A stretch of DNA of 64,000 nt from a virus, in the IMG/VR virus record IMGVR_UViG_3300045988_072631; one strand, given 5' to 3'. Shown here one piece after another: positions 1,754-42,659 of the stretch. The position numbers and the translations under genes are program-made. Numbering within the stretch: position 1 is the first letter of the stretch; the number at the start of each line of letters is the position of its first letter. Below the pieces are notes generated by a model. The model searched no databases, was not told where the DNA came from, and worked only from the letters and a program-made list of their open reading frames with translations.

Positions 1754-4570
1754 TTGCTTTTTGAAAGTGGAGGTGCTTTTCTATTGGCATCTGAAAATCT
1801 GAAACAAACAATCCAAGGATACGAAAATTATATACAGTCGCATGGAATAGACGAAACAGTCATTGAGGCATACGTAGAAGCCTGTTCCGTGGCTATAAAT
1901 AATGAAAAGGATACAGAATATGGCTTGCAACTTACAAGGCGGTCTAAAGAGCTTATAGAACGTTACTGCATGAAGCAGACCGGTGGGACGATCTGGGATC
2001 TGGAAAAATATGCGTTTGCAAATAAAACAAGCTATGATCTGATTGACAAATTCCATTCAGTATTGCTTTTGGAAGCACAAAACAAGGTGGTTGACAGCTT
2101 TTTCCGGTATATTGAGCATAAGCGAGAACCTAAAGAACGGTTCTACATGCCACGAAGGAAACAATTTTTGAAAATTGGTCTGGTGGATGCTCTACAGGGA
2201 ATGATTGATGACAAGTACGACATTTTGTGCATTAGCCTTATTCCCGGTGCCGGGAAAGCTGGAAAGATGTCGTCTAAAGTCCTAACACCAAGTGGATTCA
2301 TTGAAATGCGTGATGTAAAGGTTGGAACAAAAGTTGTGGCCGGAGACGGAGAAAAAGCGTCTGTTATTGGAGTATATCCACAAGGGAAACGCCGAATATA
2401 CAGAATTACAATGAATGACGGAGGCTTTACAGAAGTTTCAGATAATCACTTATGGGAAGTACAAAATCGGTGTGATAGACAATTTGAAACAAGGACGGGA
2501 AATCATAGAACAAGAATAATAAAAACGGAAGATATGCTTAAAGATTTTATTATTGAAAAAGACGGAAGGAAAAACTATTCTATAGACTATGTTCCCGAAA
2601 TTAAATCCTTTGAAGAAAAAAAGTTTTATATACACCCGTATCTTCTTGGATGCTTATTGGGAGATGGTGGATTAAGTACAAAAACAATTTGCTTTACAAA
2701 AAAAGATAAAGAAATAGTTGAAAAAATCAATTCACTCATTGGCGGATATGAGTTTGTCCTAAAACATGGAAGTGATAAAGATTATTATTTGCGCTCTAAA
2801 TATGCTGCAAAAAAGCCCAACCTATTAAAAGAGGAACTAAATAGATTAGGCCTTCTTGGTACAAAATCTGCTACAAAATTTATACCAGAAGAATATCTAT
2901 ATTCAAGTCATGAACAAAGATTGTGGCTATTACGTGGATTGTTAGATACAGACGGATACGCAGAATACAAGGGAATAGAATATTCAACAGCTTCTCAAAA
3001 ACTTGCGGAAAATGTAACAGAATTAGTACGTTCTTTGGGAGGATATGCGAGCTTAACAAAACGGAAATCTGGGTACAGAGACAAGGACGGCAATAGTGTT
3101 TCGTGCCTTGATAACTATAGGATTACAATTTTGTTTAGTGCAAATCATGATAATCCATTTTGGTTAGAGAGAAAAGCTAAAATATATAATCCAAAACGCA
3201 AGGTTTGGAAACGTTATATAAAAAATATTGAGTATGTAGGAGAAGAAGAGTGCCAGTGTATTATGATTGATAATCCTTGCCATTTGTACATTACAGATGA
3301 TTACATTATTACTCACAATACTACCATTGAAAAATTCTTTAATGCTGCGGTAATTGGCTGGTATCCGAAAGACTTCAATCTGTTTTATTCCCATAGTGGC
3401 GATATTACCAGAATGTACTATGACGGTATATATGATATAGTTACTAATTCAGATGAATATGCGTGGAATGAGATTTTCCCTGATTTGTATGTGACAAGCA
3501 CAAATGCAAAGACAGAACAGTTCAACGTAGGAAAATATAAGCCGTTTCCATCTGTACAGTGCACATCTGTAGGAAGCAAAAATGCGGGTAAAGTCCGTGC
3601 TTCTAAGTTTCTGCTGGTTGATGATATGATTGGCGGTATCGAGGAAGCATTGAATCCGGCTATACTTGAAAAGTTGTGGAGTAAGTATTCCGTAGATGCA
3701 CGCCAAAGAAAAATCAAAGATACTGATGGTAAGAATTGTAAGGAAATACACATTGCAACCAGATGGAGTGTCCAGGATGTCATAGGGCGTATCCAAAAAA
3801 TGTATGAAGGTAATCCGAGGGTAAAGGTAATTGCTGTTCCTGATGTTGATCCGGTAACTGGACAGAGCAATTTTGATTATGAATTTTCCGGGTTCGATGT
3901 GGAGTTCTTTGAAGATCAGCAACTTTTGATGGATGAAATATCCTACAAGTGTCTGTACAAACAGGAACCGATCGAGCGTGAAGGACTGCTATTCCCGGAT
4001 GATAAGATCAGGAGATATTTGAATCTTCCGCATGGCACACCAGAGCTTATCACAGCACAGTGCGATACAAAGGGTAAGGGAACGGACTATTTTGTTCTTC
4101 CAGTCCTGCAAAAGTACGGTGATGATTATTACTGCGTGGATGCCGTGTGCGATAATACTGCCGATTATGAGATGCAGTATGAGAATGCTGCTAACATTTT
4201 GGTAAATAACGAGGTGCAGGAATGCGAGTTTGAGCGGAATGCTGGCGGTGATCGGGTGGCAATGGAAGTCAATAAACGTGTTGAGTCTAAAGGCTGGATT
4301 TGCAACATCACCGATACACCTACAGAGACAAACAAGGAAGCAAGAATCTTCCAGTGCTCTAGCTGGATTTTACAGCATGTGATTTTCAAAGACCCATCAA
4401 AGTACAAGCCGAATGAACCGTATGGAATAATGATGTCGTTGCTGAAACAGTATTCGGTATCCGGCAAAAAGCAACTTGATGATGTGCCAGATGTGTTTTC
4501 TAACTTTGCATTAAGGATAAACAAAGGAGTTGCAAAACGGCACACAACAATTATGTCAAGCCCGATTTAA
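1754..4570 (+). CDS. terL: terminase large subunit, interrupted by an intein
   Basis: 938-aa ORF. The exteins give Walker A PGAGK/T, Walker B FLLVDDMIG, ATRWS and a nuclease-like C-terminal half. TTG start at 1754 or 1784 (GGAGG at 1769-1773). The portal gene follows. Confidence 0.9.
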   Translation: MLFESGGAFLLASENLKQTIQGYENYIQSHGIDETVIEAYVEACSVAINNEKDTEYGLQLTRRSKELIERYCMKQTGGTIWDLEKYAFANKTSYDLIDKFHSVLLLEAQNKVVDSFFRYIEHKREPKERFYMPRRKQFLKIGLVDALQGMIDDKYDILCISLIPGAGKAGKMSSKVLTPSGFIEMRDVKVGTKVVAGDGEKASVIGVYPQGKRRIYRITMNDGGFTEVSDNHLWEVQNRCDRQFETRTGNHRTRIIKTEDMLKDFIIEKDGRKNYSIDYVPEIKSFEEKKFYIHPYLLGCLLGDGGLSTKTICFTKKDKEIVEKINSLIGGYEFVLKHGSDKDYYLRSKYAAKKPNLLKEELNRLGLLGTKSATKFIPEEYLYSSHEQRLWLLRGLLDTDGYAEYKGIEYSTASQKLAENVTELVRSLGGYASLTKRKSGYRDKDGNSVSCLDNYRITILFSANHDNPFWLERKAKIYNPKRKVWKRYIKNIEYVGEEECQCIMIDNPCHLYITDDYIITHNTTIEKFFNAAVIGWYPKDFNLFYSHSGDITRMYYDGIYDIVTNSDEYAWNEIFPDLYVTSTNAKTEQFNVGKYKPFPSVQCTSVGSKNAGKVRASKFLLVDDMIGGIEEALNPAILEKLWSKYSVDARQRKIKDTDGKNCKEIHIATRWSVQDVIGRIQKMYEGNPRVKVIAVPDVDPVTGQSNFDYEFSGFDVEFFEDQQLLMDEISYKCLYKQEPIEREGLLFPDDKIRRYLNLPHGTPELITAQCDTKGKGTDYFVLPVLQKYGDDYYCVDAVCDNTADYEMQYENAANILVNNEVQECEFERNAGGDRVAMEVNKRVESKGWICNITDTPTETNKEARIFQCSSWILQHVIFKDPSKYKPNEPYGIMMSLLKQYSVSGKKQLDDVPDVFSNFALRINKGVAKRHTTIMSSPI
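2258..3319 (+). mobile_element. intein with LAGLIDADG homing-endonuclease domain inserted in the terL P-loop (candidate class 3)
   Basis: Block A KVLTPSGFIEMRDV, block B SDNHLW, two LAGLIDADG motifs (LLGCLLGDGG, LLRGLLDTDGY), C-terminal IITHN followed by T. The N boundary is ambiguous (2258 or 2267) within the GAGKAGK duplication. Confidence 0.8.
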
Positions 4571-34496: not shown

Positions 34497-34756
34497 AAGT
34501 GGATTTACTGGAGGATGCGTACATATGCATCAGCAAAGACGAGTATATCAATTTGGTAGATCAGGAAACTAGAGTGAATGTTCTGGTTGGTTTGATAGCT
34601 GCCGGATGCAAGCCGAGCGGAGAGGAAATACTTCGTATCCTTGGAACGGAACTGGCAATCGTAACCGCAAACGAATTAAGGGAGAAAAGAAATGGAACTG
34701 AAACTTTTACGAATGAAGCTGAAAAACTTCACAAAATATACCGAAAAAGAGATTGA
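34493..34756 (+). CDS. hypothetical protein (87 aa)
   Basis: ORF track. Overlaps the ATPase start by 65 nt. Confidence 0.45.
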   Translation: MKVDLLEDAYICISKDEYINLVDQETRVNVLVGLIAAGCKPSGEEILRILGTELAIVTANELREKRNGTETFTNEAEKLHKIYRKRD

Positions 34757-36614
34757 TTTCTCTAATATCACTAAAATTTCCGGTATGAACGGAGCTGGAA
34801 AGTCCAGCATTGCGACCGCATATACTTGGGTACTGTTTGATTGCGACTACAATTTGAAAAGCAGTCCGGCAGTCCGTAGGGAAGTTGACGGGGAACCGGT
34901 AATGGATTCTGATGTAGAAGTAACACTGATATTCGATCTGGATGGAAAAGAAATTTCCATGCGAAAGGTACAGCACCGGACGATCAGCAAGGACGGAGCA
35001 TCCTACAAAGATGATAATAAATATTTTATCAATGATGTTCCAAAGAAAAAAGCAGAATTTGAATCGTATCTTGGAATTGATATGGGACTTTTGAAAAGTT
35101 GTTCTAATCCAGAGGCTTTTCTTACTAAAAAAGCAGATGAAATGAGAGCATATTTGTTTTCACTGTCAGAATCTTTTTCAGATATGCATGTTTGCTGGGA
35201 GAACGAAAGCCTTCATGGATTGGCAGAAAAGCTGACAGATTATTCAGTTGAAGAGTTATCTGCCATGAATAAGAAAAAGAAAACGGATATTGAGAAAGAG
35301 CTTCCGGTTCTGGACGGACATATTAAGGAGAAAGAACGAGACATCAAGTTAAAATCCGACATGGATGTGTCTGATCTGGAATTGCAGAGAAATACATTGA
35401 AAGAACAGATTGCAGAGAATCTGAAAAAACAGGCTGATAGTCAGAACATTTTGAAAGATTATGAATCTGCTACTGCCGGAATTATGGAGCTGAAATTCAA
35501 ACTGCCAGATATGCAGAATCAGGCGAATAATGTTCTATCAGAAAAAGTCCGGAAGATCAGAAGTGAAATAGCGGATAAAACAGCCGAAAAGCGGAGATTA
35601 GAAATTGAGTCTGACAATTACAGCCGGAAAGTAGAAATATTGACAGATTCAATTAAGAGATTGACCGAAGATAAGCAGAAAATGGCTGAACTTTGGAAGC
35701 AGGAGAAAGCAAGAGTTTTTGACGAAAACAGTACCGTATGCGTGTACTGCGGGCAGGAATATCCAGAGGACAAGAAAGAACAGCTCCGGTCAGAGTTCGC
35801 AGTGCGTAAAGAAGCGGAATTGAAGCGCATCACCGACAAAGGAATGTCTCTGAAATCTTCTATCGAGGAAAATGAAAAACATATTAAGACTTTGAATACT
35901 TTTTTTGAGCATAACGCAGAATGTATTCGGAATATTGAAGAAGAAATTCGACTTCTCAGAGAAAAAGAAGCGGAAATTCCGATTGCTGCGGATATTTCTG
36001 GTAATGAAGAATATAAGAAAATTCAGAACCAGATTACTGAAAAGGGAAAGTACCTGGAACAGTTTGGAAACGCTTCTGATTTGAAAGAACAGCTTAAACA
36101 GGAAGAATCGGAGTTGAACGAACAACTGAGAGCCTGCGAACAGAAAATTGCACAGTCGGATACCTCCGCAGAAGAAGAAAGACTGGAAGAACTGAAAGCA
36201 AGAAAGCTTGACCTGGGGCAGAAAAAGACGGACGCAGAGCATATACTTGACCTTCTGGCAGAACTGGAAAAGAAGAAAAATGAGCTGCTTTCCGATGAAA
36301 TCAACAGCCATTTTGGACTGGTTAAGTGGAAGTTGTTCGAGAATGCAAAGAATGGAAATTACAAGTCCGTATGCATTCCACAGGTTGACGAAAAGTCCAT
36401 TCTGACCACCATCAGCAATAAGGGGAACCGGATTCTCGGAAAACTGGATATTTGCCGGAGTATCCAGAAAATCGAGGGAATTTCAGTGCCGATCTGGTTG
36501 GATGATTGTGAGTCGTTGGACTCTGAAAACCAGAAGAAGGTTATTGATATGGTGGACGGTCAGCTGATTATGCTGATCGTAAATGATGGCAAAGAATTAA
36601 AAGTGGAGGGGTAA
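34692..36614 (+). CDS. SbcC/Rad50-like AAA ATPase
   Basis: Walker A GMNGAGKSS, long coiled coil, C-terminal WLDDCESLD. Confidence 0.7.
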   Translation: MELKLLRMKLKNFTKYTEKEIDFSNITKISGMNGAGKSSIATAYTWVLFDCDYNLKSSPAVRREVDGEPVMDSDVEVTLIFDLDGKEISMRKVQHRTISKDGASYKDDNKYFINDVPKKKAEFESYLGIDMGLLKSCSNPEAFLTKKADEMRAYLFSLSESFSDMHVCWENESLHGLAEKLTDYSVEELSAMNKKKKTDIEKELPVLDGHIKEKERDIKLKSDMDVSDLELQRNTLKEQIAENLKKQADSQNILKDYESATAGIMELKFKLPDMQNQANNVLSEKVRKIRSEIADKTAEKRRLEIESDNYSRKVEILTDSIKRLTEDKQKMAELWKQEKARVFDENSTVCVYCGQEYPEDKKEQLRSEFAVRKEAELKRITDKGMSLKSSIEENEKHIKTLNTFFEHNAECIRNIEEEIRLLREKEAEIPIAADISGNEEYKKIQNQITEKGKYLEQFGNASDLKEQLKQEESELNEQLRACEQKIAQSDTSAEEERLEELKARKLDLGQKKTDAEHILDLLAELEKKKNELLSDEINSHFGLVKWKLFENAKNGNYKSVCIPQVDEKSILTTISNKGNRILGKLDICRSIQKIEGISVPIWLDDCESLDSENQKKVIDMVDGQLIMLIVNDGKELKVEG

Positions 36615-36616
36615 AA

Positions 36617-37216
36617 ATGAGTAAAGCATTGGATATGGCAAGAGAACTGGTTAAGAAGCTGGAAGAAGAGGAAAAACAGCCAAAAGTGCAGCTTTTAACT
36701 TTGAATCCGGGAAATGTATTCAAAATTGGAGAGCATGATTTTATTGTACTGATGCAGTGCAGAGAGGAAACAGCAGTAATTTCCAAAGGATTCATGGCTG
36801 AAAATGTGAAATTTGATGAGGATTCGAGAAACTATAAAGAGTCAAATCTGAAAAAGGTTATCGAGAATCTGATCCAGCCGGTTATTGAGAAGGAAGTCGG
36901 ATCAAAAAACCTTATTGAGCATGAGGTTGATCTGACAAGTGTAGATATGCAGGATGAGTTCGGAGGATTCAAGTGCAAAGTCAGACCAATCACATTCGAA
37001 GAAGCCAGACTGTACAACAATTTACTGGTTAATAAAAACCTTAATGATTGGTGGTGGACATGCACACCTTGGAGCACAGAAGACAGAGGATGGAAATATT
37101 CAATTGCCGTTGTTGCTCCGTCCGGCCTTATCAACGACAACTATTTCAGCAACTGCTACGGTGTTCGCCCGTTTTGTATCTTAAAATCTAATATCTTTGT
37201 ATCGAAGGGAGAATGA
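36617..37216 (+). CDS. DGR target protein 1 (C-type-lectin-fold variable C-terminus)
   Basis: C-terminus WWWTCTPWS...VVAPSGLINDNYFSNCYGVRPFCI contains VR1. Confidence 0.8.
   Translation: MSKALDMARELVKKLEEEEKQPKVQLLTLNPGNVFKIGEHDFIVLMQCREETAVISKGFMAENVKFDEDSRNYKESNLKKVIENLIQPVIEKEVGSKNLIEHEVDLTSVDMQDEFGGFKCKVRPITFEEARLYNNLLVNKNLNDWWWTCTPWSTEDRGWKYSIAVVAPSGLINDNYFSNCYGVRPFCILKSNIFVSKGE
37107..37180 (+). repeat. DGR variable region VR1
   Basis: The 74 nt align to TR with 11 differences, 10 of them at TR adenines. Confidence 0.85.
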
Positions 37217-37857
37217 AAATGGGATTAACAATGAAAGCATTGCAGGAACAGATTGATGTGTTAAAAAAAGAAATGGAAGAGCTGAGAAGCGGCCAGAAAG
37301 TAGAATGCAACAAGAAATTTTCCAAATTTCTTACTATTGGTGAAACATTTGAACTGGCAGGAGTTAATTGGAAGATTATTGATATCACGAGTGATGGTTA
37401 TGTTTGTCTGTCTGATTCTATAGGTGAAATGAAATTCAGCTCTGAAAACAATGACTGGAGAACCAGCAATCTTCGAAAATATTTGAATGAAGAATTTTTG
37501 AAAAAGATGGAATCAGAAATCGGGACAGGTAATCTGATCAAATTTGAGAGAAGCCTTCTTTCTTTGGACGGTCAGACGGAGTACGGAACATGTGATGATA
37601 AAGTTTCACTTTTGACAGTGGATGAGTACCGGAAATACAGAAAGCTCATTCCAAATACAGACGATTGGTTCTGGTTGATTTCTCCGTGGAGTACACCTTG
37701 CAATGGCTTCAACAACAGTGTTACCGTTGTTGCTCCGTCCGGCAATATGCCTTCAACTACGGCGGTTACTACGGCCGCTGCGGTGTTCGCCCGTTCTGTA
37801 TCTTTTCTTCTGCAATCTTTGAATCAGAGGAAAAATAAATGCCAGAAACAGAACTGA
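37213..37857 (+). CDS. DGR target protein 2, frame-shifted inside its variable region
   Basis: Paralog of target 1 (WFWLISPWS...VVAPSG). A 5-nt duplication in VR2 shifts the frame. The ancestral frame ends at TAA 37836-37838. Confidence 0.7.
   Translation: MKMGLTMKALQEQIDVLKKEMEELRSGQKVECNKKFSKFLTIGETFELAGVNWKIIDITSDGYVCLSDSIGEMKFSSENNDWRTSNLRKYLNEEFLKKMESEIGTGNLIKFERSLLSLDGQTEYGTCDDKVSLLTVDEYRKYRKLIPNTDDWFWLISPWSTPCNGFNNSVTVVAPSGNMPSTTAVTTAAAVFARSVSFLLQSLNQRKNKCQKQN
37724..37802 (+). repeat. DGR variable region VR2 (79 nt, carries a 5-nt duplication)
   Basis: Positions 1-25 correspond to TR 1-25. Positions 26-79 correspond to TR 21-74 with adenine-specific changes. Confidence 0.8.
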
Positions 37858-38210
37858 AAGTAATTCTGAAAGCAAAAGATCTGGCAGCGCATACTTTGAG
37901 AGTGACATCGAATTGCAACCGGTATCCTAAAAAGTATAGATTTTCATTGGTGGACAAGATGCAGAATAAAGCACTTGAAATTTATGAATATTTGTACGAA
38001 GCCAACCGGACAGATTTGAAAAATTTTAAAAAGGAGCGATCAGAGTTACAGACAAAAGCAATCACAAATTGCGATGAATTGTTGTTTTATATCGAATTAT
38101 CAATGAAACTTAATATTATCAGCATGGAAAGCACGGAGTATTGGTCGAAAATGGTGTCCGATATAAAACATATGGCGATTGCATGGAGAACCAAAGATAA
38201 AGGACGATAA
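37839..38210 (+). CDS. avd: accessory variability determinant (Avd, four-helix bundle)
   Basis: 123 aa, basic and helical, lying between the targets and TR/RT. Confidence 0.75.
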   Translation: MPETELKVILKAKDLAAHTLRVTSNCNRYPKKYRFSLVDKMQNKALEIYEYLYEANRTDLKNFKKERSELQTKAITNCDELLFYIELSMKLNIISMESTEYWSKMVSDIKHMAIAWRTKDKGR

Positions 38211-38235
38211 AATTATAGGTTATGCGCTGTTTAAA

Positions 38236-38309
38236 CCGTTGTTGCTCCATCCGGCAATATCAACAACAACAATTACAACAACAGCAACGGTGTTCGCCCA
38301 TTCTGTATC
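38236..38309 (+). repeat. DGR template repeat (TR)
   Basis: A-rich AAC-codon tract (..AATATCAACAACAACAATTACAACAACAGCAAC..) matching both VRs. Confidence 0.85.
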
Positions 38310-38407
38310 AAACAGGCAGTTAGAGTAGGCAATAAGCCGAAATCAGAGAAAGATACAAAAAAGTGCATGACCTTCTCGAATAGGGTAAATACAAAGGAAT
38401 TTTTACA

Positions 38408-39430
38408 ATGGATAAAGATGTTATATGCAGCTATGAAAATCTGTATAAGGCATACCGGAAGGCTAAAACTGGAAAAGGTTTTAATGGAAGCTGTGCAAAA
38501 TTTCAGACTATGAATCTGGAAGGACTTCACTTATTGAAAGAACAACTGGAAAATCAGACATACCGGTTGAATCCGTACAACGAATTTAAGGTTTACGAAC
38601 CGAAAGAAAGAGTGATTAAATCGTGTTCTTTCAAAGACAAAATCGTCCAACATTGCTTATGCGACGAGATTTTGCATCCTGCATTAAGGGATCGCTTTAT
38701 TAGTACGAATTATGCAGGGCAGCAGGGGAAAGGTACTCATTTTGGAATGGATTGCTTGAAAGAGCAAATGATTGATTTTTATGAAGAACATAGACTTGAT
38801 GGCTGGATTCTTAAATGTGACATTAAAAAGTTTTTCTACCAGATAGACCATGAGATCCTGAAAAGAATTGTTGACTATCACTTTCCAGATGAGTACACCA
38901 AATGGTTGAATCACCTGTTTATTGAAAGCACAGAAGGTCTGGGGCTTCCACTCGGGAATCAGGTAGCTCAGGTATATGCACTTCTGATGCTAGATGGTAT
39001 GGATCACTTCATTACCGAAACACTTGGAATATCCAGATATGGAAGATACATGGATGATTTCTATTTGATCTATCCAGATAAAGAGTATTTGATGTTTTGT
39101 CTAAAACAGATCCGAGAATTTCTTGGAAGGCTGGAACTTGAATTGAATGGAAAGACACAGATTGTCCCATTCAAATGCGGAATAGCATTTACAGGTTTTC
39201 ATCACTACGTAACATTGGAAGGAAAATACATAAGAAAATTGAGTGGAACAAACAAACGAAAGATGCGTAAGAAAATCAGGAAATGGTCAGAACTGGTTAG
39301 ATCCGGGAAAATGACGGAAGAAAAATTTTTTGAGAAGTACAACGCTTGGAAAAACCATGCATTACATGGGAATTGCATTAAGTTGTGCCACTCGATGGAT
39401 TTATATGTAAAAGAATTATTGGAGGAATAA
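38408..39430 (+). CDS. DGR reverse transcriptase
   Basis: 340 aa. CDIKKFFYQIDH, LPLGNQVAQ, RYMDDFYLIY (YMDD). Confidence 0.85.
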   Translation: MDKDVICSYENLYKAYRKAKTGKGFNGSCAKFQTMNLEGLHLLKEQLENQTYRLNPYNEFKVYEPKERVIKSCSFKDKIVQHCLCDEILHPALRDRFISTNYAGQQGKGTHFGMDCLKEQMIDFYEEHRLDGWILKCDIKKFFYQIDHEILKRIVDYHFPDEYTKWLNHLFIESTEGLGLPLGNQVAQVYALLMLDGMDHFITETLGISRYGRYMDDFYLIYPDKEYLMFCLKQIREFLGRLELELNGKTQIVPFKCGIAFTGFHHYVTLEGKYIRKLSGTNKRKMRKKIRKWSELVRSGKMTEEKFFEKYNAWKNHALHGNCIKLCHSMDLYVKELLEE

Positions 39431-39436
39431 GTGATT

Positions 39437-40183
39437 ATGGCAGATACACAGGTAGCAGTAACAGAGGAAAAGAGAGAAGTATCAAGAAATAAAGTGACGG
39501 ATTACAGTCTTGGAATTTTTGGAACGTCAGATAACTTCATTATGGCTATGCAGATGGCAAAAGCATTGTCAAGTTCAACGATAGTGCCACAAACGTTCCA
39601 GAGAAATGAAGCGAATTGTCTGATTGCCATTGAGCAGGCACAGAGATTGCACGTAAGTCCGCTTATGGTAATGCAGAACCTTAATGTAATCCAGGGAAGA
39701 CCGTCATGGAGTTCCAAGTTTTTGATTGCTGCGATCAATAACAGCGGAAATTTTGATACGGAATTACAGTTCGAGGAGAAGAAGGACAAGGACGGAAAGC
39801 CATTTTCTTGCACAGCATGGGTAATGAAGAATGGTAGAAAAGTTGAAGGTATGACGGTTGACATGGATATGGCGAGAGCAGAGGGATGGCTTGGAAAAAA
39901 CGGAAGTAAATGGAAAACCATGCCACAGCTGATGCTTCGTTACAGAGCAGCATCTTTCTTTTCCAGTCTTAATTGCCCGGAACTGACTATGGGTCTGTAC
40001 ACAAAAGAAGAGATTATTGACGGTGATTTCAAAGAATACAAGATCGAAGATGTACAGGAGCAGGCTCATGAAGAGATCGTTAAGAATGCAAATTCTATGG
40101 ATTTTGAACCGGAAGAAACTGCTGGAACAGTGACTGAACCGGACGGGCAGCAGGCAATGCCGGAGTTCATGCAGGAGGGATAA
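39437..40183 (+). CDS. recT: RecT-family single-strand annealing recombinase
   Basis: MQMAKALSSSTIVPQTFQ...NVIQGRPSWSSKF pattern. The alternative GTG 39431 is also possible. Confidence 0.75.
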   Translation: MADTQVAVTEEKREVSRNKVTDYSLGIFGTSDNFIMAMQMAKALSSSTIVPQTFQRNEANCLIAIEQAQRLHVSPLMVMQNLNVIQGRPSWSSKFLIAAINNSGNFDTELQFEEKKDKDGKPFSCTAWVMKNGRKVEGMTVDMDMARAEGWLGKNGSKWKTMPQLMLRYRAASFFSSLNCPELTMGLYTKEEIIDGDFKEYKIEDVQEQAHEEIVKNANSMDFEPEETAGTVTEPDGQQAMPEFMQEG

Positions 40184-40184
40184 G

Positions 40185-40553
40185 ATGAGAGTAATTTCGC
40201 AGGATGGAACGATTGATGTTCCGTATGAAAATTTTGTATTTGGAATAACTTTAGATAATTATATATCGGCGGTTATGGATACAGCAGTAAGACCAACTGA
40301 AGTCGTGAATGGAATTATGGCTAAATATTCATCCAGAGAAAAAGCACTGAAAGTAATGGAATTGTTGAGAGAGACATATGTCGGAATACCTATCGTAATG
40401 CAGAATGTTGATGTTTCAGAAGATGTGGCAAAGGAATTTGAAAGATTAAATAAATGCGGTGTTATGGTGCGAGCAGAAAATCAGCCGTCAAAAGTAGATT
40501 TTATTAACAATGCTGTTTTCCGGTTTCCGGCGGACGATGAGGTGAAAGTATGA
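40185..40553 (+). CDS. hypothetical protein (122 aa)
   Basis: ORF track. Confidence 0.5.
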   Translation: MRVISQDGTIDVPYENFVFGITLDNYISAVMDTAVRPTEVVNGIMAKYSSREKALKVMELLRETYVGIPIVMQNVDVSEDVAKEFERLNKCGVMVRAENQPSKVDFINNAVFRFPADDEVKV

Positions 40554-40765
40554 CTCTTAAAGAACGAGTGATCGTAGAAGCCTACACAGGTTACTGTATG
40601 ACAATAGGCGAGGAAAGAGAAGAACTCTATAAATACATAGCGAATGCTATGGGAAGACCGATTTTTTCCCATGAACTTGCAGATGAAGAAATTCTAAGCG
40701 AGTTGCACGATAAAGTTAAAACGGATTTTATCAGGCTTTGCAGAGGAGAGGATGTAGAAGCATGA
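40550..40765 (+). CDS. hypothetical protein (71 aa)
   Basis: ORF track; overlapping stop/start. Confidence 0.45.
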   Translation: MTLKERVIVEAYTGYCMTIGEEREELYKYIANAMGRPIFSHELADEEILSELHDKVKTDFIRLCRGEDVEA

Positions 40766-41484
40766 TTTTAAAAACCGTAGAGAGTGGAAGCTCTGGTAAT
40801 TGCTATTTGCTCATTGCAAACAGCGGAGAAAAACTAATTCTGGATTGTGGAGCACTAGCAAAGGAAATTAAGAAAGGGCTGAACTGGGAAATCAGAAATG
40901 TTTCCGGGTGCGTTGTAACACATCAGCATGGGGATCATGCGTGCTCAGCCAAGTATCTTTCTAATATCGGAATACCAGTATTTGCTCCTTGCTTAGGAGA
41001 TGCTTCTGCAAACTTCAAGGGAGAATGGATTATCAAAGTCTTTGAATTGACAACGGTGGATGGCAAATGGACTCATACAAACGGTGATGGTTCTGAATGC
41101 CCGTGTTACGGTTTTTGGATTCATCACCCAGAGATGGGGACAATGATTTATGCAACTGACACAGAACTGATTAAGTGGAGGTTCAAAAATGTCAATCATA
41201 TTCTTCTGGGAGTCAATTATGACCCGGAATTATTATCCGGTGACGATGCAAAGAAAAACCATGTTGTCCGGGGACACATGAGCATTGATACGGCTTGCGA
41301 ATTTGTGAAAGCCAATGTGTCAGATCAGTTGCAGAACGTTATTATGTGCCATTTATCAAAAGAAAATGCAGATGCCGGTAAATTCATCGAAAAGATGAAA
41401 AAATCCGTTCCAAACGTCAATGTGTGCGTTGTGGAGCCTGGCATGGAATTAGAATTAAGGAATCCGGGTGAATGCCCGTTTTAG
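40762..41484 (+). CDS. MBL-fold metallo-hydrolase (probable nuclease)
   Basis: VVTHQHGDHA motif. Internal ATG of the track ORF. Confidence 0.7.
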   Translation: MILKTVESGSSGNCYLLIANSGEKLILDCGALAKEIKKGLNWEIRNVSGCVVTHQHGDHACSAKYLSNIGIPVFAPCLGDASANFKGEWIIKVFELTTVDGKWTHTNGDGSECPCYGFWIHHPEMGTMIYATDTELIKWRFKNVNHILLGVNYDPELLSGDDAKKNHVVRGHMSIDTACEFVKANVSDQLQNVIMCHLSKENADAGKFIEKMKKSVPNVNVCVVEPGMELELRNPGECPF

Positions 41485-41500
41485 AAAGGTGGAATGACTT

Positions 41501-41938
41501 ATCAATAAAGTAATTTTAACAGGTAGATTCGCGAAAGACCCTGACGTTAGATACTCAAACGGAGAAAAGACAACTGCGGTTGCGAGATTTACTCTGGCAG
41601 TAGAACGAAGATTCAAAGGTGATGGAAATCCGACGGCTGATTTTATCAACTGTGTAGCATTCGGAAAATCCGGGGAGTTTATCGAAAAATACTTCCGCAA
41701 AGGTATGAAAGCTAATATTTGTGGACGGATTCAGACCGGCTCTTATACGAATAAGGACGGAAACAAGATCTACACCACAGATGTTCTGGTGGAAGAAATT
41801 GAGTTTGGTGAAAGCAAAAGCAGCAATCAGCAGAGCGCAGCTCCGGCTAATCCAAGTAATGCAGTTAATCCAATGACTGATGAAAATGGTTTCATGAACA
41901 TCCCAGATGGAATTGATGAAGAGTTACCGTTTGCGTGA
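41501..41938 (+). CDS. ssb: single-stranded DNA-binding protein (no canonical start codon)
   Basis: INKVILTGRFAKDPDVRYS...DEELPFA*. The frame opens after TGA 41495-41497. The first plausible codon is ATC 41501, 8 nt after AAAGGTGG. Confidence 0.7.
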   Translation: MNKVILTGRFAKDPDVRYSNGEKTTAVARFTLAVERRFKGDGNPTADFINCVAFGKSGEFIEKYFRKGMKANICGRIQTGSYTNKDGNKIYTTDVLVEEIEFGESKSSNQQSAAPANPSNAVNPMTDENGFMNIPDGIDEELPFA

Positions 41939-41954
41939 TAAAGAGGGTGAGAAA

Positions 41955-42659
41955 ATGAAAAAATTTGAACTTACAGCAGAATGCGTAACAAATATTTTTG
42001 GAAAAAAATTATTCAGAATCAAAGCACTGGTAGCATTTGAAAATGTGAAAGAAGGAGATCTGGGCGGATTCGTGGAGAAAGAATCTAACCTCGCTAATAG
42101 CGGTAAAGCATGGGTTTGCGGTGATGCACAGGTCTACGGTGAAGCACAGGTCTCTGGTAATGCACAGGTTTGCGGTGATGCACAGGTCTACGGTGAAGCA
42201 CAGGTCTACGGTAATGCACAGGTTTGCGGTAATGCACGGGTCTGCGGTAATGCACGGGTCTACGGTGAAGCATGGGTCTACGATAATGCACGAGTCTACG
42301 ATAATGCACGGGTCTACGGTGAAGCACAGGTCTACGGTGAAGCACAGGTCTACGGTGATGCACAGGTCTACGGTGATGCACAGGTCTACGGTAATGCATG
42401 GGTTTGCGGTAATGCACGGGTCTCCGGTGATCTGGATTATGCAATTGTTGGAGGTTTTGGAAGTGAGCAGCGGACAACTACATTTTTCCGGCAGAAGGAC
42501 GGAACAGTAGGAGTGAGGTGCGGATGCTTTTACGGAACACTGGAAGAATTCAGGGGAAAAGTTAAGAAAACGCACAAAGACAGCAAATACGGACAGGAAT
42601 ACCTGATGATTGCAGATCTGATGGAATTACATTTTGCAGGAGGAAAAGAGAATGAATGA
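41955..42659 (+). CDS. hexapeptide-repeat (beta-helix-like) protein
   Basis: 18 tandem G[DEN]A[QRW]V[YCS] units followed by a Cys-containing globular C-terminus. Confidence 0.6.
   Translation: MKKFELTAECVTNIFGKKLFRIKALVAFENVKEGDLGGFVEKESNLANSGKAWVCGDAQVYGEAQVSGNAQVCGDAQVYGEAQVYGNAQVCGNARVCGNARVYGEAWVYDNARVYDNARVYGEAQVYGEAQVYGDAQVYGDAQVYGNAWVCGNARVSGDLDYAIVGGFGSEQRTTTFFRQKDGTVGVRCGCFYGTLEEFRGKVKKTHKDSKYGQEYLMIADLMELHFAGGKENE
42102..42425 (+). repeat. 18 tandem 18-bp coding repeats
   Basis: GGTGAWGCACAGGTCTAC-type units. All six frames are open across it. Confidence 0.9.

Follow-up and report, generated by a model that had tools for sequence, protein, structure and literature searches.

The second target gene of a diversity-generating retroelement (DGR) in a gut phage carries a variable region, VR2, that is 5 nt longer than the template repeat (TR), so that the end of the gene is read out of frame. 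Judged from its sequence, target 2 is very probably inactive in this form, the conserved GVRPFCI... C-terminus being replaced by an unrelated tail. With confidence that is about evenly balanced, we regard VR2 as a genuine and recent out-of-frame allele that arose by mutagenic homing with an error in length at the 5' boundary of the (AAC)3 tract.

The DGR cassette and the reading frame of target 2

The window, that is, the whole stretch of 64,000 nucleotides that was analyzed, contains a complete DGR at positions 36617-39430, in the order target 1 with VR1, target 2 with VR2, avd, TR and reverse transcriptase (RT) (Table 1). No copy of the repeat other than TR, VR1 and VR2 occurs in the window, where 0.01 copies were expected from shuffled sequences. 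The adjoining RT matches Pfam RVT_1 (E = 2e-16) and has an intact active site, with YMDD in its translation. Differences between TR and the variable regions are confined to TR adenines in VR2, once the 5 nt are removed, and 10 of the 11 differences in VR1 also lie at a TR adenine. The product of avd is an Avd-type candidate that fits in position and size, with matches to bAvd (25.1 bits) and 23S_rRNA_IVP (26 bits) that both lie below the Pfam gathering cut-offs; the exact protein was found on 23 contigs. Target 1 ends in ...YGVRPFCILKSNIFVSKGE, and its match to Pfam DUF6273, over profile positions 125-172, scores 21.9 bits, below the 23.5-bit cut-off. A megablast search of the cassette against GenBank phages returned no match. 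The hairpin 3' of VR2, considered as a candidate homing signal, resembled shuffled sequences in its folding energy (MFE -4.9 kcal/mol, z-score -0.96).

The genes that flank the DGR (34692-36614 and 39431-41484) encode an AAA_23 ATPase on one side and RecT-like, DUF7736 and metallo-beta-lactamase-fold proteins on the other, the last of these with a weak recorded match to the Anti-Pycsar protein Apyc1. The DGR is not positioned in a tail module, and both of its targets are small single-domain proteins.

Table 1. Positions of the DGR components and of the altered segment of target 2 in the window
Feature	Position	Strand	Remarks
DGR target gene 1	36617..37216	+	199 aa ORF, DUF6273-like C-terminus
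VR1	37107..37180	+	74 nt, in frame; relative to TR, 10 A-site differences and one C-to-T
DGR target gene 2, present form	37213..37857	+	214 aa from ATG 37213; frame-shifted; overlaps avd by 19 nt
VR2	37724..37802	+	79 nt, TR + 5 nt
Interval with the 5 extra bases of VR2	37747..37753	+	From enumeration of all 5-nt deletions and A-wildcard alignment; directly 5' of the (AAC)3 tract
Rest of target 2 in the ancestral frame	37754..37838	+	NYGGYYGRCGVRPFCIFSSAIFESEEK, stop TAA 37836-37838
Constant 3' end of VR2, putative IMH-like segment	37782..37802	+	Counterparts in VR1 (37160-37180) and TR (38289-38309)
avd accessory gene	37839..38210	+	123 aa; Pfam bAvd and 23S_rRNA_IVP matches, both below cut-off
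Template repeat (TR)	38236..38309	+	74 nt, 22 adenines, AAC/AAT-rich
DGR reverse transcriptase	38408..39430	+	340 aa, YMDD; Pfam RVT_1

An earlier note on this DNA had given VR2 as 79 nt and both TR and VR1 as 74 nt, and these lengths and their coordinates proved correct. To place the extra bases, every possible 5-nt block was deleted from VR2 and the remainder was compared with TR. Deletion of ATGCC (37747-51), TGCCT (37748-52) or GCCTT (37749-53), that is, from VR2 position 24, 25 or 26, left 13-14 mismatches, all at TR adenines, as the earlier note had held for the rest of VR2, and all other placements produced non-A mismatches. Realignment with a proper aligner, MAFFT, which that note had called for, put the 5-nt gap at the same place. 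In TR coordinates, the insert falls between T25 and C26, just 5' of C-AAC-AAC-AAC (TR 26-35). The further claim that VR2 is identical to TR over positions 1-25 stood for the intact AATAT, in which A21, A22 and A24 are unmutated, and failed at position 14, where TR has A and VR2 has G. The 15 A-site changes and one T-to-C counted in that note are correct for the alignment then used, with 12 of the changes in TR 26-74 and three in GCCTT.

The effect on the reading frame was likewise as the earlier note had described. In the current frame, VR2 is read as ...VVAPSGNMPSTTAVTTAAAVFARSVSF..., and the ORF runs into avd, where it stops at 37857. The other frame reads ...YAFNYGGYYGRCGVRPFCIFSSAIFESEEK and ends with a TAA (37836-37838) immediately ahead of the avd ATG (37839), and when the 5 nt were removed the conserved C-terminus ...GVRPFCIFSSAIFESEEK was recovered, with this TAA abutting the avd start. 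A GAGG Shine-Dalgarno sequence of avd's own, read from the sequence, is kept upstream of its ATG. Gene callers start target 2 at ATG 37219, which gives a protein of 212 aa; exact protein look-up found this form and returned no record of the 214-aa form.

Damage to target 2, also claimed earlier, was borne out by comparison with the Pfam profile of DUF6273, which has been described as a C-type-lectin-like target domain of DGRs with the variable region at its C-terminal end (PMC10743442; PMC11792537). The frame-shifted protein matched with 25 bits over profile positions 25-97, and the match was extended to positions 25-169 when the 5 nt were removed (37.8 bits) or 1 nt was added (34.8 bits). As the variable region lies at the C-terminal end of DUF6273 and the shift falls there, the end of the ligand-binding domain is lost.

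In principle, the shifted frame could have a function, whether it provides an alternative C-terminus or is rescued by programmed ribosomal frameshifting, and the presence of the allele on several contigs (see below) is the one observation on its side. Its tail is unique: the GVRP... frame is kept in 14/14 of the other members listed in the 90%-identity cluster of target 2, which end in ...GVRPFCIFSSAIFESE[E/K]K, and in 224/224 other TR-VR pairs of the family survey presented below, and the Pfam match is lost beyond profile position 97. No slippery site was seen by eye, and rescue by frameshifting was rejected on the lack of such a motif and of conservation in the tail. We consider a functional role for the shifted frame extremely unlikely.

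Authenticity of the 79-nt allele and its siblings

The window is identical to the ENA contig ERZ826364 NODE_392_length_67650_cov_7.45, from a human-gut-type metagenome assembly. This exact match to a metaSPAdes-style contig of low coverage (7.45), together with the polymorphism of VR2 between samples, raises the question of whether the extra bases are an assembly or sequencing artefact in a population-variable region. However, the exact frame-shifted 212-aa product was found on 7 contigs from ENA, Logan and JGI/IMG (5 in a second look-up), and it is recorded in six collection blocks on contigs of 50-200 kb. The carrier contigs differ in length (67,650 versus 67,722 nt). A short Logan contig (ERR3451329), recurring in two samples, is 100% identical to the window across the VR2 allele, so that both the product and the DNA were recovered by a different assembler from at least two samples. 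In addition, a graph chimera would presumably need a k-mer shared within the unique variable stretch. Because two assemblers and several contigs agree, an artefact is very improbable, and the 79-nt allele appears to be genuine rather than the product of one assembler, as judged from assembled contigs that may represent few samples or one person.

Relatives of the window were collected from 80 IMG/VR loci via the RT protein, and more were obtained through exact look-ups of the Avd and RT proteins and pattern scans (ENA, Logan, JGI and two MAGs). The 3' end of TR was found in the two MAGs, L222 and L223, assigned to Agathobacter sp. and Faecalimonas sp., and from this assignment the hosts of the phage group appear to be Lachnospiraceae.

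The nearest contigs carry VR2 alleles of 74 nt that are in frame; the 74-nt in-frame allele that the earlier note had suggested seeking in related genomes is therefore present in near-identical phages. Four of these (L092, L090, L095 and L084) match the window exactly over 2-7 kb if VR2 is set apart, save for one or two additional bases, of which one is in TR. VR2 accounts for 16/17, 15/15, 20/22 and 20/22 of their respective differences from the window, and outside VR2 and the TR repeats there are 0-1 differing positions over 2-7 kb. The RT and Avd proteins of the window are identical to those of the sibling contigs. Natural diversification is thus restricted almost entirely to VR2. As VR1 is identical on the four sibling backgrounds and VR2 is present there as four different alleles, VR2 is being rewritten in this lineage and VR1 is constant; on this evidence, the target adjoining avd and TR appears to be the one that is actively rewritten. 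The identity of the siblings outside VR2 also indicates that the 79-nt allele is a recent product. Since avd, TR, RT, the VR2 3' end and the 5' homology are all intact, a later homing event could plausibly overwrite the lesion and restore the frame.

Several further variations were observed among the close relatives. At position 14 (window 37737 in VR2 and 37120 in VR1), TR has A and the VRs of the close lineage have A or G only, with G in all four VR2 alleles of the sub-lineage to which the window belongs. This position looks inherited, which suggests that converted tracts may usually end 3' of it. L084, L088 and L095 have a G9-to-A change in TR (CCGTTGTTACTCC) and G at this position in their VRs, so that the mutation of the template has not reached the targets. 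A second variable locus, which is not DGR-like, is positioned at 41907-42659. The ORF there contains ~17 tandem 18-nt units (array 42119-42431) encoding hexapeptides of the GDAQVY/GEAQVY type, and two near-identical siblings (L094 and L096) differ from the window in a cluster at 41902-42096.

Origin of the five extra bases

Our survey of 136 distinct related cassettes comprised 225 distinct TR-VR pairs, of which 198 showed no difference in length between VR and TR. Differences of +3 nt were observed in 15 pairs (about two of which are artefacts of the placement of the search-pattern anchor), of -3 nt in 8, of +6 nt in 1 and of +9 nt in 2, so that 26 of the 225 pairs differ by a multiple of 3. 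The +5 nt of the window is the single out-of-frame case, and no other out-of-frame copy was found in a second scan of 324 distinct VR/TR 3' ends. The possibility, considered in the earlier note, that the 79-nt form is conserved among homologs can be set aside, as it occurs in 1/225 pairs. Whole-codon changes thus affect ~12% of VRs and frame-breaking changes ~0.3-0.4%. In A-wildcard alignments, the other indels are whole NNC codons gained or lost in AAC tracts, with the exception of a GGT inserted in L085, and mutated adenines usually flank them on both sides.

The TR itself changes length in the family, as in one cassette (L034) TR is 80 nt (3824-3903), with six AAC codons in its first tract, and both VRs (at 2671 and 3291) are 77 nt. 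Across the family, fixed-like non-A differences between TR and VR, resembling IMH/IMH*, were observed at position 66 (108/193 pairs) and position 68 (170/193), which correspond to 37172-37174, 37794-37796 and 38301-38303 in the window; both are absent from VR2, and VR1 shows C68-to-T alone.

The preferred explanation places the error at the RT stage, as a faulty realignment at the border of the AAC tract, a reading to which we give about even weight. In one mutagenic homing event, the RT would copy the TR RNA with the usual adenine substitutions and would, in the same event, get the length wrong at the 5' border of the (AAC)3 tract. The extra bases would then represent two added AAC-derived codons (GCC TTC), and C26 would have been lost, so that VR2 gained 5 nt overall. 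The downstream frame of VR2 reads AT- GCC TTC AAC TAC GGC GGT TAC..., an allele type with two added codons that is known in the family, and this +6/-1 decomposition would be the most economical reading of the extra bases. An origin at the RT stage is consistent with the family pattern, in which codon gains of this type are common and indels sit in AAC tracts. On the other hand, the length would have to change twice under the +6/-1 reading, all other length changes among about 300 VRs were multiples of 3, and the sequence of the five bases is fitted equally well by random filler.

Substitution rates for the comparison of readings were obtained from the 193 family pairs of equal length. At A sites, 44% remained A, 30% became G, 20% T and 5% C; overall, ~56% of A sites were changed versus 0.7% per site elsewhere. 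T became C at 0.5% per site, and among the family VRs T23 was changed in 1/193. With these rates, the likelihood of AACAAC giving GCCTTC, with zero non-A changes, is 6.5e-4 and that of a random 5-mer is 9.8e-4. That of AATAT giving GCCTT is 1.7e-5, because a T-to-C change is needed, so that the sequence likelihood of an AATAT copy is ~40-60x lower than those of the alternatives.

These values bear directly on the earlier proposal that the cDNA joined the 5' side of VR2 with a slip of 5 nt, leaving two copies of TR 21-25 (AATAT), the first unmutated and the second mutagenised. Among readings as a tandem 5-nt duplication, this one needs the fewest non-A changes (one), and in its alignment all As from position 21 on the 5' side of the insert are unmutated and 15/21 on the 3' side are mutated. 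To our knowledge, the cDNA integration step of DGR homing is not understood. However, only two of the five positions of GCCTT are informative for a copy of AATAT, and one of them disagrees, namely the T23-to-C that is so rare in the family. Together with a likelihood of 1.7e-5 versus 9.8e-4 for random bases, this leaves the derivation of GCCTT from AATAT an interpretation with no support above the chance level. A21, A22 and A24 are unmutated on the 5' side of the insert, and the 3' side is heavily changed. An intact AATAT 5' of the insert, which occurs in 6/179 family VRs (a 3% tail) whatever its origin, is equally unusual as old VR sequence and does not in itself favor a junction. Moreover, an A14-to-G change lies upstream of the proposed junction, and no second example of such a duplication was found among about 300 VRs; neither the 224 other pairs nor the 324 VR/TR 3' ends showed a recurrence of an imprecise junction. 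We consider the AATAT duplication improbable, to the point of giving it little weight.

Other sources of the five bases were tried and set aside. Under an A-wildcard comparison with TR, GCCTT fits GCAAT (19-23), four occurrences of AACAA, and ACAAT; this test is uninformative, because 54% of all 5-mers fit some TR 5-mer. The occurrence of GCCTT at VR1 19-23 was judged to be due to chance, given that a 5-mer has a probability of ~7% per 74-nt stretch and that there are three equivalent placements.

An integration-stage error could also have occurred without duplication, by the addition of untemplated or unrelated filler to the end of the cDNA during joining to the target. No templated reading accounts for the bases better than a random 5-mer does (9.8e-4), and the insert lies where unmutated and mutated sequence meet. 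Extra bases at template-switch junctions are known from other reverse transcriptases. Nevertheless, there is no other such case in the family and no evidence that DGR homing uses a junction of this kind, and the C at every third base in GCC TTC would then be a coincidence, at ~1 in 16 by our own estimate. Filler of this type is rather unlikely, and the integration-stage errors taken jointly, that is, AATAT duplication and untemplated filler, are a minority possibility.

The frame shift could also be an ordinary replication mutation without relation to the DGR, acquired after homing by an in-frame 80-nt allele that lost 1 nt or by a 74-nt allele that gained 5 bp. The family does contain in-frame +6 and +9 alleles from which such a form could start, and target 2 may be dispensable, its allele being present on several long contigs. 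However, the site is not a homopolymer run, and a random mutation exactly here is unlikely because the siblings differ at only 0-1 positions outside VR2 and TR over 2-7 kb. The in-frame proteins that such a history predicts were also looked for. Ten precursor or revertant proteins (NI-, NIAF-, NMAF-, NMPF/S/Y/C-, NMSF-, NMTF- and NTAF-NYGGYYGRC...) were looked up in a collection of 15 billion proteins, and none was present. The absence of these precursors and of the exact -5 form counts against replication mutation, which we hold to be decidedly unlikely, and it also counts against the +6/-1 reading, for which no in-frame 80-nt precursor or 74-nt revertant was found. It mildly favors a single event, without choosing among the readings.

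Comparison with known DGRs and implications

Indels between TR and VR have been catalogued in 7% of DGRs; 11/25 of them were frame-shifting and 74% lay next to AAC, and the authors attributed them to template slippage by the RT (Wu et al. Nucleic Acids Res 2018, PMC5758913). A 2026 study (PMC12875486) cites this model of 3-nt slippage, and negligible indels were observed with a reconstituted BPP-1 DGR (bioRxiv 10.64898/2026.07.21.739853). The VR2 allele resembles the catalogued cases (Wu et al., 2018) in that VR is longer than TR (79 versus 74 nt), the indel lies beside an AAC tract, the frame is shifted and the second target is canonical. Unlike those cases, it can be dated as recent, its siblings being identical outside VR2, and it is the sole out-of-frame length change among ~225-300 family VRs, in which changes by multiples of 3 amount to ~12%. 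The VR2 frame shift is therefore a new example of an already catalogued phenomenon and not a new mechanism, and knowledge of the DGR mechanism is unchanged, because frame-shifting indels adjacent to AAC were already catalogued in 2018.

The DGR of Bordetella phage BPP-1 (mtd/avd/TR/brt) is the reference system for mutagenic retrohoming. It shares with the window cassette the order target-avd-TR-RT, adenine-specific differences, a VR at the C-terminus of a C-type-lectin-like domain and a slightly differing constant 3' segment. In contrast to BPP-1, the cassette has two small DUF6273 targets instead of the tail-fibre protein Mtd, and it lies between the AAA_23 ATPase gene and a RecT-like gene, outside the tail module. 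Also related are the DUF6273 DGR targets of gut Firmicutes phages, namely Faecalibacterium prophages (PMC11792537) and the 'tentaclin' phages (PMC10743442), which share the Pfam domain, with a predicted C-type-lectin-like fold, and the position of VR at its C-terminal end. Neither report mentions a frameshift or an indel in a VR allele. The hosts of the window phage appear to be Lachnospiraceae, in line with the Agathobacter and Faecalimonas MAGs.

It is also conceivable, although we think it doubtful, that the five bases are a natural footprint of cDNA joining at the 5' side of VR, captured by duplication or by untemplated filler. If this were true, integration would be possible without precise homology, and the footprint would provide a signature to seek in population data.

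For annotation, caution is warranted, as the 212/214-aa ORF overlapping avd represents a damaged DUF6273 target. More broadly, these observations indicate that an active phage DGR occasionally damages the gene it diversifies, and several long assemblies contain the broken allele. By implication, target 2 would be dispensable, at least temporarily, and hypermutation would carry a real cost.
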